Below, piece after piece: positions 49,557 through 63,814 of a DNA stretch of 64,000 bases; within the stretch, counting starts at the first letter, position 1; every line of letters begins with the position of its first letter. Source of the DNA: Escherichia coli (lineage in GTDB: Bacteria > Pseudomonadota > Gammaproteobacteria > Enterobacterales > Enterobacteriaceae); the NCBI GenBank assembly GCA_031701365.1, contig GCA_031701365.1_4118.1; one strand, given 5' to 3'. The position numbers and the translations under genes were made by a program. The notes beneath the pieces are model-generated. The model searched no databases. It was not told where the DNA came from and saw only the letters and a program-made list of their open reading frames with translations.

Positions 49557-49616
49557 TTGCAAACTATGTTTAAAGGCGTATAATGTTTTACATCGAGAGC
49601 GGGAACTCTTCCCGCT
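49557..49616 (+). promoter_or_regulatory. PeSL-like promoter plus 5' stem-loop
   Basis: TTGCAA, 16-nt spacer, TATAAT, then GTTTTACATC and hairpin GAGCGGGAACTCTTCCCGCT. Confidence 0.65.
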
Positions 49617-49639
49617 ACACTTTAAGAGAGATTAATACG

Positions 49640-50002
49640 ATGGCGACTCAAATCACTAAAATCATGCTTAACCTGGTAAACTTCCGCGAAGAGATGAAAG
49701 GTCTTCCGGCTGAAACTGTAAAAATTCACATTGCAGCTTATCGGGAACTTATTGCAATGTTACCGCTTAAGCGTGAACAATACGCCGCTACTTTGATGCT
49801 TGATTCAATGATCCATGTAATGATCTCAAATGATTTGACGATGGTTTATCAGTACATGGGCGAAAATTTCGCGGTGAGTAGTAAGCCAGTACCAGGGATG
49901 GCAACTACTGAGGAATTGCACGGTTTAAATTTAAAACAAGATGCATGGGATAATATGCATCGTTTCCTGGTATGGGCTGACAGTGGCAAAATTTACAAAT
50001 AA
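49640..50002 (+). CDS. hypothetical protein
   Basis: start set at ATG 49640 (the track ORF begins inside the promoter hairpin). Confidence 0.6.
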   Translation: MATQITKIMLNLVNFREEMKGLPAETVKIHIAAYRELIAMLPLKREQYAATLMLDSMIHVMISNDLTMVYQYMGENFAVSSKPVPGMATTEELHGLNLKQDAWDNMHRFLVWADSGKIYK

Positions 50003-50016
50003 GTTTAATAAAGTAC

Positions 50017-50075
50017 TTGCATACTAAGTTAAAACAAGTATAATACTTTCTATCAGGTGGGGAATAGTCCCCCAC
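50017..50075 (+). promoter_or_regulatory. PeSL-like promoter plus stem-loop
   Basis: TTGCAT ... TATAAT, hairpin GTGGGGGAATAGTCCCCCAC. Confidence 0.6.
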
Positions 50076-50096
50076 TATAATTAAGAGATTAATTTT

Positions 50097-50330
50097 ATGA
50101 GTACTATTTTAACTGTTTCTCAATCCGTTGCACTGACTGACCTATTAAACGCTTTAAGCCGTTGCACTGAGGTTGGCTTGTTTGATGTGGTAGACGTTGC
50201 ACCGGACGTTATTAATCATTTTTGTGATGCGATGGAAGAATGTAAGGAAGATGATCGCCGTTTGATGCAGGTGACATTTGAGGAAGTACAGCCAGGTGAG
50301 ATCAAAGGTTTACCAGTACTGAAAAAATAG
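50097..50330 (+). CDS. hypothetical protein
   Basis: 77-aa ORF. Confidence 0.6.
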   Translation: MSTILTVSQSVALTDLLNALSRCTEVGLFDVVDVAPDVINHFCDAMEECKEDDRRLMQVTFEEVQPGEIKGLPVLKK

Positions 50331-50334
50331 TACT

Positions 50335-50392
50335 TGCAAACTAAGTTTAAAAGCGTATAATACTTTACATCAGGTGGGGAATAGTTCCCCAC
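50335..50392 (+). promoter_or_regulatory. PeSL-like promoter plus stem-loop
   Basis: TTGCAA ... TATAAT, hairpin GTGGGGAATAGTTCCCCAC. Confidence 0.6.
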
Positions 50393-50412
50393 TATATAAG
50401 AGGATTTAAAAA

Positions 50413-50652
50413 ATGGCTAAATCAAAAATGTTCTTAGGTCACAAAAACAAAACTCAATGGAATGTAAGCCTTTGGATTAATAACGATGAGGGATTGTATC
50501 GGTTGGCCCTGGACTTTATTGCCGCCAATACTAATCGCAATGATGCGGCCCGTCATATGATGCTATTTTTAGAACAGACTGGACAAGATAAAACACCGGA
50601 CGGATTCAAATATAGCACTACTGCGATCCGTGCGGCGATGGTTGGAATGTAA
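50413..50652 (+). CDS. hypothetical protein (paralog of the 52453 gene)
   Basis: 79 aa; shares GHKNKTxWNVSLWINN...TPDGFKYSTTAIRAAMVGM. Confidence 0.7.
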   Translation: MAKSKMFLGHKNKTQWNVSLWINNDEGLYRLALDFIAANTNRNDAARHMMLFLEQTGQDKTPDGFKYSTTAIRAAMVGM

Positions 50653-50738
50653 TAGAATTTATTTAAAGTACTATCATTTTTTTGCGATAGTACTTTATAA
50701 TAGTGTTTTATTCATACACCAACGATAAGGGCAACAGC

Positions 50739-51005
50739 ATGAATATTAAGTATTTTGCGACGCGTGAACAAGCTCGGATCGCCGCTCGCCAGGACGGGGC
50801 AACGTTTAAAGATATGGGTGCGGGATCGGCAAGTGGTGAACGTTGGGCCATTGTAAAGCGTAGTACCGCCAGATCATTACAGTACTGGTTAGCGGCCTTA
50901 AAAAGTCCCGATAGTGTATCGCGTCGAGTGGTAGAAATAAAGCTCGACCGAAAGGGCAACCGCGTGACCGTGTACCGTACTAAAAAGATTGCAGTACTTG
51001 AATAA
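50739..51005 (+). CDS. hypothetical protein (paralog of the 63040 gene)
   Basis: start set at ATG 50739; shares FATREQARIxAR...TFKDMG...RKGNRVTVY. Confidence 0.65.
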   Translation: MNIKYFATREQARIAARQDGATFKDMGAGSASGERWAIVKRSTARSLQYWLAALKSPDSVSRRVVEIKLDRKGNRVTVYRTKKIAVLE

Positions 51006-51013
51006 AAAGTACT

Positions 51014-51071
51014 TGCAAACTAAGTTTAAAAGCGTATAATGTTTTACATCGAGAGCGGGAATAGTTCCCGC
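51014..51071 (+). promoter_or_regulatory. PeSL-like promoter plus stem-loop
   Basis: TTGCAA, TATAAT, hairpin GAGCGGGAATAGTTCCCGCC. Confidence 0.65.
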
Positions 51072-51092
51072 CTATAACCTGGAGTAATAAAA

Positions 51093-51323
51093 ATGACTAA
51101 TATGTATATGACTGAAGTTAAAACCGTAAAAGATACTACCACTAATAAAACTACTTACTTACAGCGGATCTGTGGTGTATGGCAACGTATCAGCAAATCA
51201 AAGTACTTTAAATTAACATCATATGCAAACCGTTCTGATTCATTCAGTACTGAAATAAAAGGTAATAAAGTACACCAATACGGCACTTATTATTATTATA
51301 GCCTGGACGCGATTGCAGTCTAA
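51093..51323 (+). CDS. hypothetical protein
   Basis: 76-aa ORF, RBS GGAG. Confidence 0.6.
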   Translation: MTNMYMTEVKTVKDTTTNKTTYLQRICGVWQRISKSKYFKLTSYANRSDSFSTEIKGNKVHQYGTYYYYSLDAIAV

Positions 51324-51573
51324 GCAGCTTACAAATCTTTACAATTGCCGGTATTGACTTATTTTGTCAGTACTGGCATAATGTATCTATTGAAACGAAC
51401 AATTTGGCCCACGGGGTGCGGGAGTGTATCTATAGAAAAAGTAGTTTATTACAGTTACAATTGTGCACCCGGTGGGTTAGCTGTTGTCATGGGGTATATT
51501 ATGCCAGTACTTGATAATGCTGTCAATACTTTTTTTTACTATTCAGTACAGAAAACTATTTTTAAAAAGTACT

Positions 51574-62227: not shown

Positions 62228-62255
62228 TTGCAAAGTATCACGATAAGCGTATAAT
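62228..62255 (+). promoter_or_regulatory. sigma70-type promoter driving the conserved leader (copy 2)
   Basis: TTGCAA ... TATAAT. Confidence 0.55.
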
Positions 62256-62261
62256 GTATTA

Positions 62262-62345
62262 CATCAGGACGGGGAACGAAACAAGTAACTCCCCGTTAAG
62301 TAGTCCAGGAGTAAGACATACGAAAACCTCCCCTGATAAAATAGT
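62262..62345 (+). ncRNA. candidate structured leader or small RNA (copy 2 of 2)
   Basis: about 90 percent identical to 51601-51690. Confidence 0.3.
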
Positions 62346-62373
62346 TTGACAATAGATTTTAGTACTGTATAAT
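62346..62373 (+). promoter_or_regulatory. sigma70-type promoter (TTGACA ... AGTACTG TATAAT)
   Basis: read directly. Confidence 0.55.
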
Positions 62374-62403
62374 AGTTTACATCTTAATTAATAAGGAAAC
62401 ATC

Positions 62404-62538
62404 ATGAAAGCAGCAAACAACACCAAAAAAGCAACCAATCCCCTGGCTGGCTGGAAGTTAGATTTATCCGATGAAGTGGTTTGCACAAATAGTAATGTAG
62501 TTGAAGCTGAAAAGAAATTAAGAAAAGAAAAAAAATAA
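62404..62538 (+). CDS. hypothetical small basic protein (44 aa)
   Basis: not in ORF track; RBS AAGGAAA. Confidence 0.4.
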   Translation: MKAANNTKKATNPLAGWKLDLSDEVVCTNSNVVEAEKKLRKEKK

Positions 62539-62541
62539 GTA

Positions 62542-62602
62542 TTGACAAAGTATCTTAGTACTGTATAATAGTTTACATCAAGTGAGGGGAATGGTTCCCC
62601 TC
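62542..62602 (+). promoter_or_regulatory. PeSL-like promoter plus stem-loop
   Basis: TTGACA 62542-62547, TATAAT 62564-62569, GAGGGGAATGGTTCCCCTC 62584-62602. Confidence 0.65.
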
Positions 62603-62625
62603 CTAACAAAAAGAGAGAAATTAAA

Positions 62626-62949
62626 ATGACTATGATCCTTACCCAGAAAGTCGAATTGAAAATTGTAACCTCCTTTGACATTAAAGTTAATCGGTGGACT
62701 GATAGTCACGGCAATACTTACCACTCCTGCTACGTGTCAGCATTGATTGGTGACCGCTGGGAAGACCTGGGACATGAAACCTTTACTTACGGTTACGGCA
62801 CACAAGGAGAATACACGGGCTTGGAGATCATTAAAGAAACTGTAATAGGTTTCAACCCGAAAGAGAAAGTACTACACAGAATTGAGGAAGAGATCAACAA
62901 AGAAATTACAGTTCGTTACTACGATGTAAAACGTAAGAAAGACATGTAA
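62626..62949 (+). CDS. hypothetical protein (paralog of the 56063 gene)
   Basis: 107-aa ORF. Confidence 0.7.
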   Translation: MTMILTQKVELKIVTSFDIKVNRWTDSHGNTYHSCYVSALIGDRWEDLGHETFTYGYGTQGEYTGLEIIKETVIGFNPKEKVLHRIEEEINKEITVRYYDVKRKKDM

Positions 62950-62971
62950 TAGAATCCATTTAAAGTACTAT

Positions 62972-63000
62972 TTGACATTGCCCAGATAGTACTTTATAAT
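62972..63000 (+). promoter_or_regulatory. sigma70-type promoter (TTGACA ... TAGTACTT TATAAT)
   Basis: read directly. Confidence 0.5.
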
Positions 63001-63039
63001 AGACTCTAACTTGTAGTACTAATTAACTTAACTAATAGG

Positions 63040-63444
63040 ATGTACACCATGATTACTAAATTCTTCGCTACCCGTGAACAAGCTCGCATCGTTGCTCGTG
63101 AAGAAGGTGAAACATTTAAAGACATGGGCAAAGATGCACCGAAAGGACAACGCTGGGCGGTACAGTTCAAAGAGATCTCTGATATTGTGAATTCACCTGA
63201 GCCTGTACTTACTGAAGCAGAACTAAAGCAAGCTCAAGAACTGGCTGAAGTACTGAACGCTCAAGATAACTTCTTGGAAGGTTCTGATATTCAAGTACAA
63301 GTGAATAGTAATGCATGGACTCACGCGGATCACCTGGCAAACCTTAAGCGTCCAAGTGAACTGATTCGTAACCAGAAAGAGATCCGTCATGACCGTAAAG
63401 GAAACCGTGTAACAGTATACAGTAAACGCCGCCAGGTTATCTAA
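63040..63444 (+). CDS. hypothetical protein (paralog of the 50739 gene)
   Basis: 134 aa; alternative start at ATG 63049. Confidence 0.65.
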   Translation: MYTMITKFFATREQARIVAREEGETFKDMGKDAPKGQRWAVQFKEISDIVNSPEPVLTEAELKQAQELAEVLNAQDNFLEGSDIQVQVNSNAWTHADHLANLKRPSELIRNQKEIRHDRKGNRVTVYSKRRQVI

Positions 63445-63506
63445 TAACTTTGCAGTACTAACAACACGGCGGGAACTATTCCCGCCTTTTTTATAGGATA
63501 AACAAA

Positions 63507-63761
63507 ATGATTAAGGTTCAACTATCAAACGATAATGTATTACGGGTACACTATAAAGCCCCACAGAGAATCATCTCAAAGGCCGTACAGCTTGCTAATG
63601 AGTTTATTAATGGTAGTCTATTACCCAGGAAGTTAAGCAACGGGAAACTACGTGTTATCGATGTAGACACTAACAATAGAATAGTGATCGAGAGTACTGG
63701 AAAAATTAATCTATACGAACACCAACAATACAATAAAAAAATAAAACTAATATCACGTTGA
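63507..63761 (+). CDS. hypothetical protein
   Basis: 84-aa ORF, RBS TAGGATAA. Confidence 0.6.
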   Translation: MIKVQLSNDNVLRVHYKAPQRIISKAVQLANEFINGSLLPRKLSNGKLRVIDVDTNNRIVIESTGKINLYEHQQYNKKIKLISR

Positions 63762-63814
63762 CAGTACTCAAATGTTTTAGTACTATGTATCTATACCAAC
63801 ACGGGGAAAACAAA

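Follow-up and report, generated by a model that had tools for sequence, protein, structure and literature searches.

A stretch of 64,000 nucleotides from contig GCA_031701365.1_4118.1 of the Escherichia coli assembly GCA_031701365.1, here called the window, carries in its right-hand part 19 copies of a unit of about 95 bp, the cassette, in which a near-consensus sigma-70 promoter is followed by a short hairpin, a Shine-Dalgarno (SD) sequence and the start codon of a small gene. The reading that we favour, with a probability of about 60%, is that the cassettes equip a sigma-70 array of early or host-takeover genes in the direct terminal repeat (DTR) of a jumbo phage, that the hairpin stabilises or insulates the 5' end of each mRNA, and that the repeated cassettes serve as homology for gene gain, loss and exchange.

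By DNA comparison the source phage is a jumbo coliphage of the PBECO4/121Q/G17/slurp01 type, genus Asteriusvirus (Rak2-like), to which all the close relatives of the window belong. The first-pass annotation, made from the sequence alone, had likened the region to the promoter-early-stem-loop (PeSL) architecture of hyperplastic regions in T4-type phages. The phage is not T4-type, and what remains of the PeSL comparison is discussed below. The features are collected in Table 1.

Structure of the cassettes and their hairpins

The strict pattern AGTACTTGCAA-N14-18-TATAATG had seven matches in the window against 0.00 expected. The relaxed pattern TTGMMA-N16-TATAAT-NNNTW had 21 matches, all on the plus strand and 19 of them within 49,557-62,574, against 0.07 expected from shuffled sequences. 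When the sequence downstream of the -10 boxes was scanned and every spacer was read, a G-rich/C-rich hairpin was found after 19 promoters between 49.5 and 62.6 kb, in agreement with the estimate of about 20 promoter and stem-loop copies given in the first-pass annotation. Three of the 19 are irregular, two having a 14-nt loop and one (60,742) a degenerate -10 box. The cassettes were also found by an independent repeat finder, as families D1-D5. From 5' to 3', the unit consists of an A-rich UP-like tract, AGTAC-TTGCAA or TTGACA, 16 nt, TATAAT, the conserved start region GTTTTACATC, the hairpin, the SD and the ATG.

The claim that such a promoter and stem-loop precede each gene holds for 19 of the about 40 genes in the block. 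About ten other genes have a promoter without the hairpin, and about ten lie in short operons directly behind a neighbour. The promoter-only units form two further repeated classes, located at 55,970/58,916 and 50,653/62,950.

The geometry of the unit was measured from 102 non-identical cassettes of eight phages, namely the window and seven relatives. The distance from the -10 box to the 8-bp stem was 12.2 ± 1.3 nt, the hairpin loop was 3 or 4 nt, and the stem was followed after 7.1 ± 1.6 nt by the SD and after 19.9 ± 2.1 nt by the ATG. Sigma-70 transcription normally begins 6-9 nt after the -10 box, and the whole hairpin is therefore predicted to be transcribed. As GTTTTACATC supplies purines at this distance, the hairpin is expected to begin near +5 of the transcript, and a start there would fit a stable stem-loop close to the predicted 5' end. 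All 17 regular leaders (17/17) folded into one hairpin of 7-10 bp (-10.8 to -17.2 kcal/mol), with the SD and the AUG unpaired.

Pairing is conserved also where the nucleotides are not. Pairs 7 and 8 from the loop, which were outside the selection of the hairpins, were paired in 63/64 and 53/64 distinct hairpins, respectively, by GC, AT, CG, TA and GT pairs, while positions 9-10 paired in only about 30%. RNAalifold on a MAFFT alignment of the leaders, and a MAFFT alignment of all 61 hairpins, set stems with a 3-nt loop out of register with those with a 4-nt loop; these alignments were replaced by loop-anchored counting and, for the 34 hairpins whose loop has 3 nt, by an alignment without gaps. 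The gap-free alignment gave a covariation score of 0.406 against 0.182 ± 0.016 in shuffles, none of the 500 reaching the observed value, and 0.09-0.16 in controls with slid partners. Stems of at least 8 bp were present in 51 of the 135 unique leaders, in 87 when G-T pairs were allowed and in 66 when A-C pairs, the equivalent on the other strand, were allowed. The larger gain from G-T pairs therefore favours a structure of the sense strand.

In the cassettes at 53,312, 55,729, 57,639 and 52,423 the loop reads GGGGAGAA-ATG-G/A, with the ATG in frame 30 nt upstream of the annotated start, and mechanical open reading frame (ORF) calls therefore begin inside the hairpin. The in-loop ATG (GGGGAGAAATG) was rejected as a start codon, since an SD-like run lies just 2-3 nt before it and the downstream SD and ATG are those of the relatives' annotation; it is probably a by-product of the shared sequence.

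The terminator scan classified none of the 19 cassette hairpins as terminator-like, and none of them is followed by a T-run. The same scan did flag sites at 53,568, 54,445, 55,180, 58,049, 62,092 and 63,468. Against Rfam 15 no family reached the gathering score, and in the DTR an E-value of up to 1 gave only three chance-level matches. The exact hairpin was also sought in IMG/VR with the pattern TATAAT-N11-14-GGGGAGAA-N3-4-TTCTCCCC, which retrieved only 121Q and five incidental contigs without cassette arrays; IMG/VR thus gives no evidence for a wider spread of this exact hairpin.

These results bear on the nearest known system. PeSLs have been described from RB49/phi1, T4/PST and KVP40/nt-1 (Arbiol et al. 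2010, PMC2839356; Comeau et al. 2014, PMC4122927) and, like the cassettes, are repeated intergenic units of about 100 bp, in which a near-consensus sigma-70 promoter is accompanied by an AT-rich tract, a G-run/C-run stem-loop and an SD. Both kinds of unit are concentrated among small ORFan genes, close relatives differ by indels and replacements located at the units, and where a gene was lost a single chimeric unit is left. As defined, a PeSL is a strong sigma-70 promoter combined with a stem-loop mostly located between the -35 box and the -10 box or over the -10 box; termination of transcription was shown for one of these stem-loops, and this role was proposed for the class (PMC2839356, PMC4122927). 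The cassettes could be canonical PeSLs, whose stem-loops terminate or attenuate upstream transcription and isolate each gene. The definition admits a class with the stem-loop downstream of the -10 box (PMC2839356, section 14), and at 63,468 and 52,712 stems of the cassette type have a T-run behind them and are predicted to be terminators. In the RB49 sequence, however, the stem-loop occupies the -35/-10 spacer or covers the -10 box, e.g. TTGACA-GGGGGTCACCGATCCCC-TATAAT, a position that only read-through would transcribe, whereas here it is fixed in the 5' untranslated region (UTR), always 12 ± 1.3 nt after the -10 box and thus within the unit's own predicted transcript, and lacks the T-run in all 19 cases. 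The host lineages (Straboviridae versus Asteriusvirus) and the locations (an internal hyperplastic region versus a direct terminal repeat) differ as well, and true composites of terminator and promoter form a separate element type in the window (58,049; 62,092; 13,090; 24,453; 25,174; 27,201). We regard canonical PeSLs as an unlikely explanation. The 19 cassettes share the evolutionary behaviour of PeSLs, namely shuffling at regulatory units, but not their architecture or host lineage.

The composite elements themselves, with the arrangement AAGGGTTGAC-TTCG-GTCAGCCCTTTTTGC-TATAAT, occur on the plus strand also at 13,090, 24,453, 25,174 and 27,201. They match the PeSL class in which the stem-loop covers the -35 box, and are distinct from the 19 cassettes. 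On the minus strand, promoter-like sites (TACAAT or TATAAT) at about 58,150-58,049 and 62,200-62,092 are followed by about 85-90 nt containing the conserved motif GCACCC-NN-GGGC/T and no ORF. These units, at about 58,100 and 62,150, end at a bidirectional terminator (family D10), and repeats related to them are present at 48,984-49,037, 49,200-49,253, 53,621-53,674, 51,400-51,480 and 59,790-59,830. Located between gene blocks of the DTR, they are candidates for small RNAs in antisense orientation.

Two cassettes belong to a larger repeat of 186 nt, family D7, with copies of 87% identity at 51,537-51,722 and 62,192-62,377 and a diverged third copy at about 54,525-54,640. It consists of a cassette promoter, a structured RNA of about 85 nt without an ORF, and a second promoter. 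In the RNA, a closing helix AUCAGG/CCUGAU surrounds two hairpins (-19 to -20 kcal/mol). This part is 92% identical in the unrelated phage A7_1 (L008 4001-4087) and matched no Rfam family; a small RNA and a regulatory leader are both possible.

Table 1. Positions of the cassettes and other features in the window.
Feature	Position	Strand	Basis and remarks
Left ~16 kb of ~21-kb DTR	47904..64000	.	End alignments of vB_Ec-M-J, ELP-22 and G17; DTR continues past the window end
Non-coding terminal stretch of DTR, 1.6 kb	47904..49542	.	8-bp tandem array (ACGGCTAA) and many TCAGTACTGA copies; repeat family D6
Block of ~40 small genes, 30-203 aa, mean ~83 aa, 71% coding	49640..63761	+ (all)	ORF calls, spacer reading
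Cassette 1: promoter, 5' hairpin, SD	49543..49639	+	Motif scan, hairpin fold
Cassette 2	50003..50096	+	Motif, fold; left partner in the indel of gene 50097-50330
Cassette 3, upstream of DUF7249 gene	50320..50412	+	Motif, fold; -10/hairpin/SD and gene common to many Vequintavirinae
Cassette 4	50999..51092	+	Motif, hairpin fold
Cassette 5: promoter, then ~85-nt structured leader/ncRNA-like element (14-nt-loop hairpin), second promoter at 51,691	51559..51690	+	Arm of repeat D7
Cassette 6, upstream of second DUF7249 paralog	52361..52452	+	Motif, hairpin fold
Cassette 7	53250..53341	+	Motif, hairpin fold, repeat finder
Cassette 8	53718..53806	+	Motif, fold; partner in 121Q indel with 45-bp overlap
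Cassette 9	54035..54127	+	Motif, hairpin fold
Cassette 10	55347..55443	+	Hairpin scan, fold; 245-bp gene insertion inside it in G17 and 121Q
Cassette 11	55667..55758	+	Motif, hairpin fold
Cassette 12	57252..57344	+	Motif, fold; ELP-22 has two copies around an extra gene
Cassette 13	57577..57668	+	Motif, hairpin fold
Cassette 14	58175..58267	+	Motif, hairpin fold
Cassette 15	58610..58703	+	Motif, hairpin fold
Cassette 16: degenerate -10 TATAGT, hairpin	60742..60821	+	Spacer reading, family D4
Cassette 17	61354..61444	+	Motif, hairpin fold, relatives' junctions
Cassette 18: second copy of promoter and ~85-nt structured leader unit	62214..62345	+	Family D7; 92% identical to A7_1 L008 4001-4087
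Cassette 19	62528..62625	+	Motif, hairpin fold
Only full promoter and hairpin cassette outside DTR	21653..21742	+	Motif and hairpin scan, fold
Promoter-only class CAGTACTATTGACA...GATAGTACTGGCATAAT, extended -10, no hairpin	55970..56069	+	93% identical copy at 58,916-59,015 (D8)
Promoter-like third class AAAGTACTAT...GATAGTACTTTATAAT	50653..50738	+	Related copy at 62,950-63,039 upstream of paralogous gene (50739/63040)
Hairpin-only element with short T-run	52712..52735	+	G17 annotates the ortholog as terminator
Predicted intrinsic terminator: cassette-type hairpin GGCGGGAA cta TTCCCGCC, then TTTTTT	63468..63492	+	Terminator scan
Composite terminator/promoter: stem holds -35 TTGACT, T-run is the spacer, -10 TATTAT	58049..58084	+	Flagged as terminator-like and promoter-like by the scan
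Composite terminator/promoter, like that at 58,049	62092..62127	+	Scan

Variation between relatives at the cassettes

The plasticity of the cassette region far exceeds that of the remaining window, and this is the part of its description as a hyperplastic region that stands; it is a terminal repeat and not an internal region. In positions 1-24 kb, 23 relatives covered at least 80% of the sequence, in one to three pieces and with 97-98% identity. No relative covered at least 80% of the cassette region, the best reaching 75% in ten pieces with 93.5% identity.

Chained alignments to seven relatives gave 24 indel or replacement variants with 34 distinct breakpoints. Only four of the 34 were in gene interiors, i.e. 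more than 15 nt inside a gene, although these make up 62% of the region (p = 2e-9). Cassette-bearing spacers, 32% of the region, held 24 of the 34 (p = 7e-6). The synteny comparison thus supported the modular shuffling suggested in the first-pass annotation: the breakpoints coincide with the units, and 30 of the 34 are outside gene interiors.

In five events the sequences overlap at the junction by 45-80 bp, and the overlap is the cassette itself. Around the gene 50097-50330, G17 and 121Q have one cassette where the window has two, and the single cassette of G17 is a chimera, matching the first of the two window cassettes in its left flank and the second in its right part. Four relatives lack the GNAT gene (60,387-60,743), the junction lying between one -35 box and the -10 box of the next unit. 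In ELP-22 the cassette at 57,252 is duplicated around an extra gene. Also within the window one promoter half is joined to differing hairpins, and one hairpin to differing promoter halves.

The same distribution of junctions could have arisen if the cassettes were only expression signals kept alike by selection, with no role in recombination, and if the junctions were at gene boundaries since only such variants keep working genes. No repeated sequence is present at several junctions (61,010/61,360; 54,417/54,460; 62,402/62,530), and the junctions concentrate at stop and start codons, to within a few nucleotides, as this explanation would have it. The five events with a 45-80 bp cassette overlap, however, carry the signature of crossing-over between two cassettes, the chimeric and duplicated cassettes and the varied combinations of promoter and hairpin halves are directly seen, and the genes are dispensable in relatives, so that selection against broken copies should be weak. 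Selection acting by itself is given a low probability here.

Mosaic variation was observed also in another block of the window. About ten paralogous RCC1-like genes, which the annotation of relatives names 'regulator of chromosome condensation', form an array on the minus strand at about 32,000-46,500. In front of each gene is a conserved spacer that contains a GCCAGTAC...GTACTGGC hairpin and TATAAT-GAATAAAGGAGGG. The array is mosaic among the relatives, and no record covers at least 80% of it.

The terminal repeat, its genes and their sharing

Position 47,904 aligns to nucleotide 1 of vB_Ec-M-J, the record of which annotates 'Direct Terminal Repeats' at 1-21,525, and also matches the first nucleotide of ELP-22 and the final one of G17. 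As this position aligns to the genome termini of the relatives, 47,904-64,000 represents the left 16 kb of the DTR. In related phages the DTR is 20,993 bp in fEgEco12, determined by PhageTerm together with restriction digests (PMC13070987), and 20,668 bp in Sharanji, determined by PhageTerm (PMC11895373). In ELP-22 the cassettes reach about 20.5 kb, and past about 21.5 kb the genes are tightly packed and without cassettes; the cassette array is therefore approximately coextensive with the DTR.

The first 1.6 kb of the DTR, which are non-coding, contain about six perfect copies of ACGGCTAA inside an array with a 24-bp period (48,679-48,812), seven TCAGTACTGA copies and other short repeats. Packaging or replication signals of the genome end may lie in this stretch. 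Directly left of the DTR start, the plus strand carries four ORFs in tandem at 46,839-47,619, each of about 61-69 aa. At this locus the number of such tandem genes, about 60 aa long, varies between phages and reaches 17 in relatives (121Q genes 249-265). The tRNA and tmRNA scans found none.

Functions could be assigned to almost none of the genes in the block when 30 proteins were searched against Pfam and ten against PHROGs. The only Pfam matches were DUF7249 (twice), a DksA/TraR zinc finger, a GNAT acetyltransferase and DUF7247, and all the PHROG matches were of unknown function except for one weak secondary match to 'DNA ligase'. Of the four gene duplications at distant sites listed in the first-pass annotation, three were recovered: the 50413/52453 proteins are 63% identical and both DUF7249, and the 50739/63040 and 56063/62626 proteins are paralogs with 35 and 37% identity, respectively. 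The fourth pair, 55759/59009, was rejected because BLASTP gave no alignment. The real repeat near these genes is the upstream cassette, with 93% identity between 55,970-56,069 and 58,916-59,015 (family D8).

The region was indeed richer in GC, as first noted, the content being 0.380 in 49,557-63,786 and 0.340 in 1-47,000. Coding GC was 0.397 in the cassette region against 0.332 in the rest, and GC at third codon positions (GC3) 0.357 against 0.268 (Mann-Whitney p = 1e-8). Compared with the genes in 1-31,800, those of the DTR (49,640-63,761) were shifted towards CTG, CCG, CGC, GGC and ATC, which are codons preferred by E. coli, and the correlation of their relative synonymous codon usage (RSCU) with the rest of the window was only 0.77. 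The codon shift may fit genes that are translated before phage functions appear; a shared gene pool could also explain it. A foreign origin of the whole block, one of the possibilities raised by the composition, was rejected because the block is syntenic in all the relatives and therefore belongs to the phage lineage. What remains of that suggestion is a pool of genes that the region has in common with Vequintavirinae.

Of 203 phage records similar to the region in DNA, most are not Asteriusvirus but mainly Vequintavirinae (rV5/phi92-like, about 140-150 kb). Genes together with their leaders occur at 72-92% DNA identity in these unrelated phages. The match of the DUF7249 gene in many Vequintavirinae (phi92, phiWec188 and others; 72-86%) begins just before the -10 box and covers the hairpin and SD, and gene and leader therefore travel together. 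In the rV5-type phages the match begins at the ATG. Phage A7_1 (L008) has several of the window genes at 82-90% identity along with Asteriusvirus-type cassettes. Its own spacers also carry, before small genes, a promoter, a hairpin about 10 nt after the -10 box, an SD and an ATG, but its native units differ in the -10 box (TAAATT or TAAGAT), in the -35 context AAAGTAGTTGACA and in having no AGTACT enrichment. The rV5 paper lists promoters and terminators only, and a cassette of this kind is not described there (PMC3606486).

From these matches we tentatively suggest that Asteriusvirus and Vequintavirinae, two unrelated groups of large E. coli myoviruses, might share a pool of small early genes, each travelling with a plug of -10 box, 5' hairpin and SD that would enter resident cassettes through recombination within their promoter part. 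This would amount to an exchange of host-takeover or anti-defence genes across families, taking place in the jumbo phage within the terminal repeat; the proposal is possible, but we would not give it even odds.

The palindrome AGTACT, together with CAGTAC/GTACTG, was the most over-represented hexamer of the window (252 against 21.7 expected). It is common also outside the DTR (143 against 16.1 expected), densest in 48-52 kb, present in all three reading frames, and reaches about 12 per kb in the DTR spacers. Within the cassette promoters it is located just before the -35 box (AGTAC-TTGCAA) or just before the -10 box (CAGTACTG-TATAAT). The hexamer was enriched in 121Q (182 against 11.9) and in positions 1-50,000 of Klebsiella phage RaK2 (119 against 16.9), so that in the Rak2-like sequences examined it is 7-15 times over-represented. 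It was absent from 49 kb of RB49 (0 against 15.6 expected) and not enriched in A7_1. A literature search for AGTACT with jumbo phages found nothing. In the promoters, AGTACT may be read by a phage factor.

Proposed function and its bearing on jumbo phages

If the cassettes work as their layout suggests, unmodified host sigma-70 RNA polymerase would fire the promoters right after DNA entry, which would make the genes early or host-takeover genes. The hairpin would then form at the 5' end of each mRNA and act as a stabiliser or insulator against the 5'-end-dependent decay by RNase E and RppH, and it would keep the SD open regardless of the downstream gene. The repeated cassettes would offer portable homology for ordinary homologous recombination, within a genome or between co-infecting phages, and such recombination would add, delete and swap genes that are pre-fitted with expression signals.

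Both parts of this proposal have counterparts. Stem-loops at the 5' terminus reportedly stabilise E. coli mRNAs, the ompA leader being an example (Emory, Bouvet and Belasco 1992), and RNase E is said to depend on the 5' end (Mackie 1998). Like the ompA-type leader, the cassette would place a stable hairpin a few nucleotides from the predicted 5' end and leave the SD free; the likeness implies no sequence family relationship. Early timing would be paralleled by the pre-early genes of T5 and by the host-takeover module of SPO1, which likewise are in terminal repeats. The pre-early genes of T5 sit in its terminal repeat, the first-step-transfer DNA, which resembles the DTR in being a long direct terminal repeat with strong sigma-70 promoters and small host-directed genes. 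The repeat of T5 is, however, shorter and without this cassette, and a two-step DNA injection is not known for Asteriusvirus. The terminal repeat of SPO1 holds about two dozen small early genes with promoters and ribosome-binding sites typical of highly expressed genes (PMC6873191). The DTR likewise is a long direct repeat in which many small genes have good ribosome-binding sites and strong promoters of the host type. The differences are that the host of SPO1 is Gram-positive, that there is no sequence relationship, that a conserved 5'-UTR hairpin and cassette-bounded gene swapping have not been described, and that early timing and host takeover were shown experimentally in SPO1, while here they are inferred.

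Several observations weigh against the proposal. The z-scores of the single hairpins were modest (-1.1 to -3.7), and the hairpins used for covariation had been selected for at least six pairs, which leaves only the outer pairs as an unbiased test. The same stems followed by T-runs act as predicted terminators (63,468; 52,712), so that the hairpins may attenuate transcripts that read through from upstream. Cassette homology is missing at the junctions of some events (61,010/61,360, 54,417/54,460 and 52,998/53,251), and selection for intact genes would also leave breakpoints at gene boundaries; that recombination was the cause of the junctions rather than a correlate is inferred. Start sites, early timing, promoter strength and the role of the hairpin as RNA are all predictions from sequence features.

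That the hairpin, in the RNA or as a palindrome or cruciform of the DNA, is a site recognised by a phage or host protein (a translational repressor, endoribonuclease, antiterminator or site-specific recombinase), and not a passive 5' stabiliser, would suit the strongly conserved stem core GGGGA...TCCCC with its invariant pairs, the fixed spacing to the -10 box and the SD, the SD-like 5' arm and anti-SD-like 3' arm, and the protein target that the PeSL authors suggested for GGGG...CCCC stems (PMC2839356), but it is quite improbable given that the loops and outer stem pairs vary freely with the pairing kept, that G-T pairs favour one strand, contrary to a duplex DNA site, and that no recombinase or RNA-binding protein was recognised among the genes of the region with Pfam or PHROG.

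The promoters and hairpins are not described in the Asteriusvirus genome papers of fEgEco12 (PMC13070987), Sharanji (PMC11895373) and phAPEC6, and the paper on CBB lists RpoD-like promoters only. Relative to PeSLs, the stem-loop position, the location in a terminal repeat, the phage lineage and the sharing across families are new. The finding is not surprising in kind, since abundant promoters and plasticity are known features of early regions in large virulent phages.

With the array in the DTR, cassette-mediated modular shuffling is no longer confined to T4-type phages but extends to jumbo phages and a terminal repeat. The array also points to a different design, in which the stem-loop would be part of the mRNA leader and not a terminator. 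As a portable unit, the cassette would mark which genes are early or host-takeover genes in about 40 sequenced jumbo coliphages, which are considered for therapy, and predict where accessory genes come and go; it would also offer compact, strong and insulated expression parts for E. coli. The sharing with Vequintavirinae at the DNA level makes gene flow between unrelated virulent phages directly traceable.

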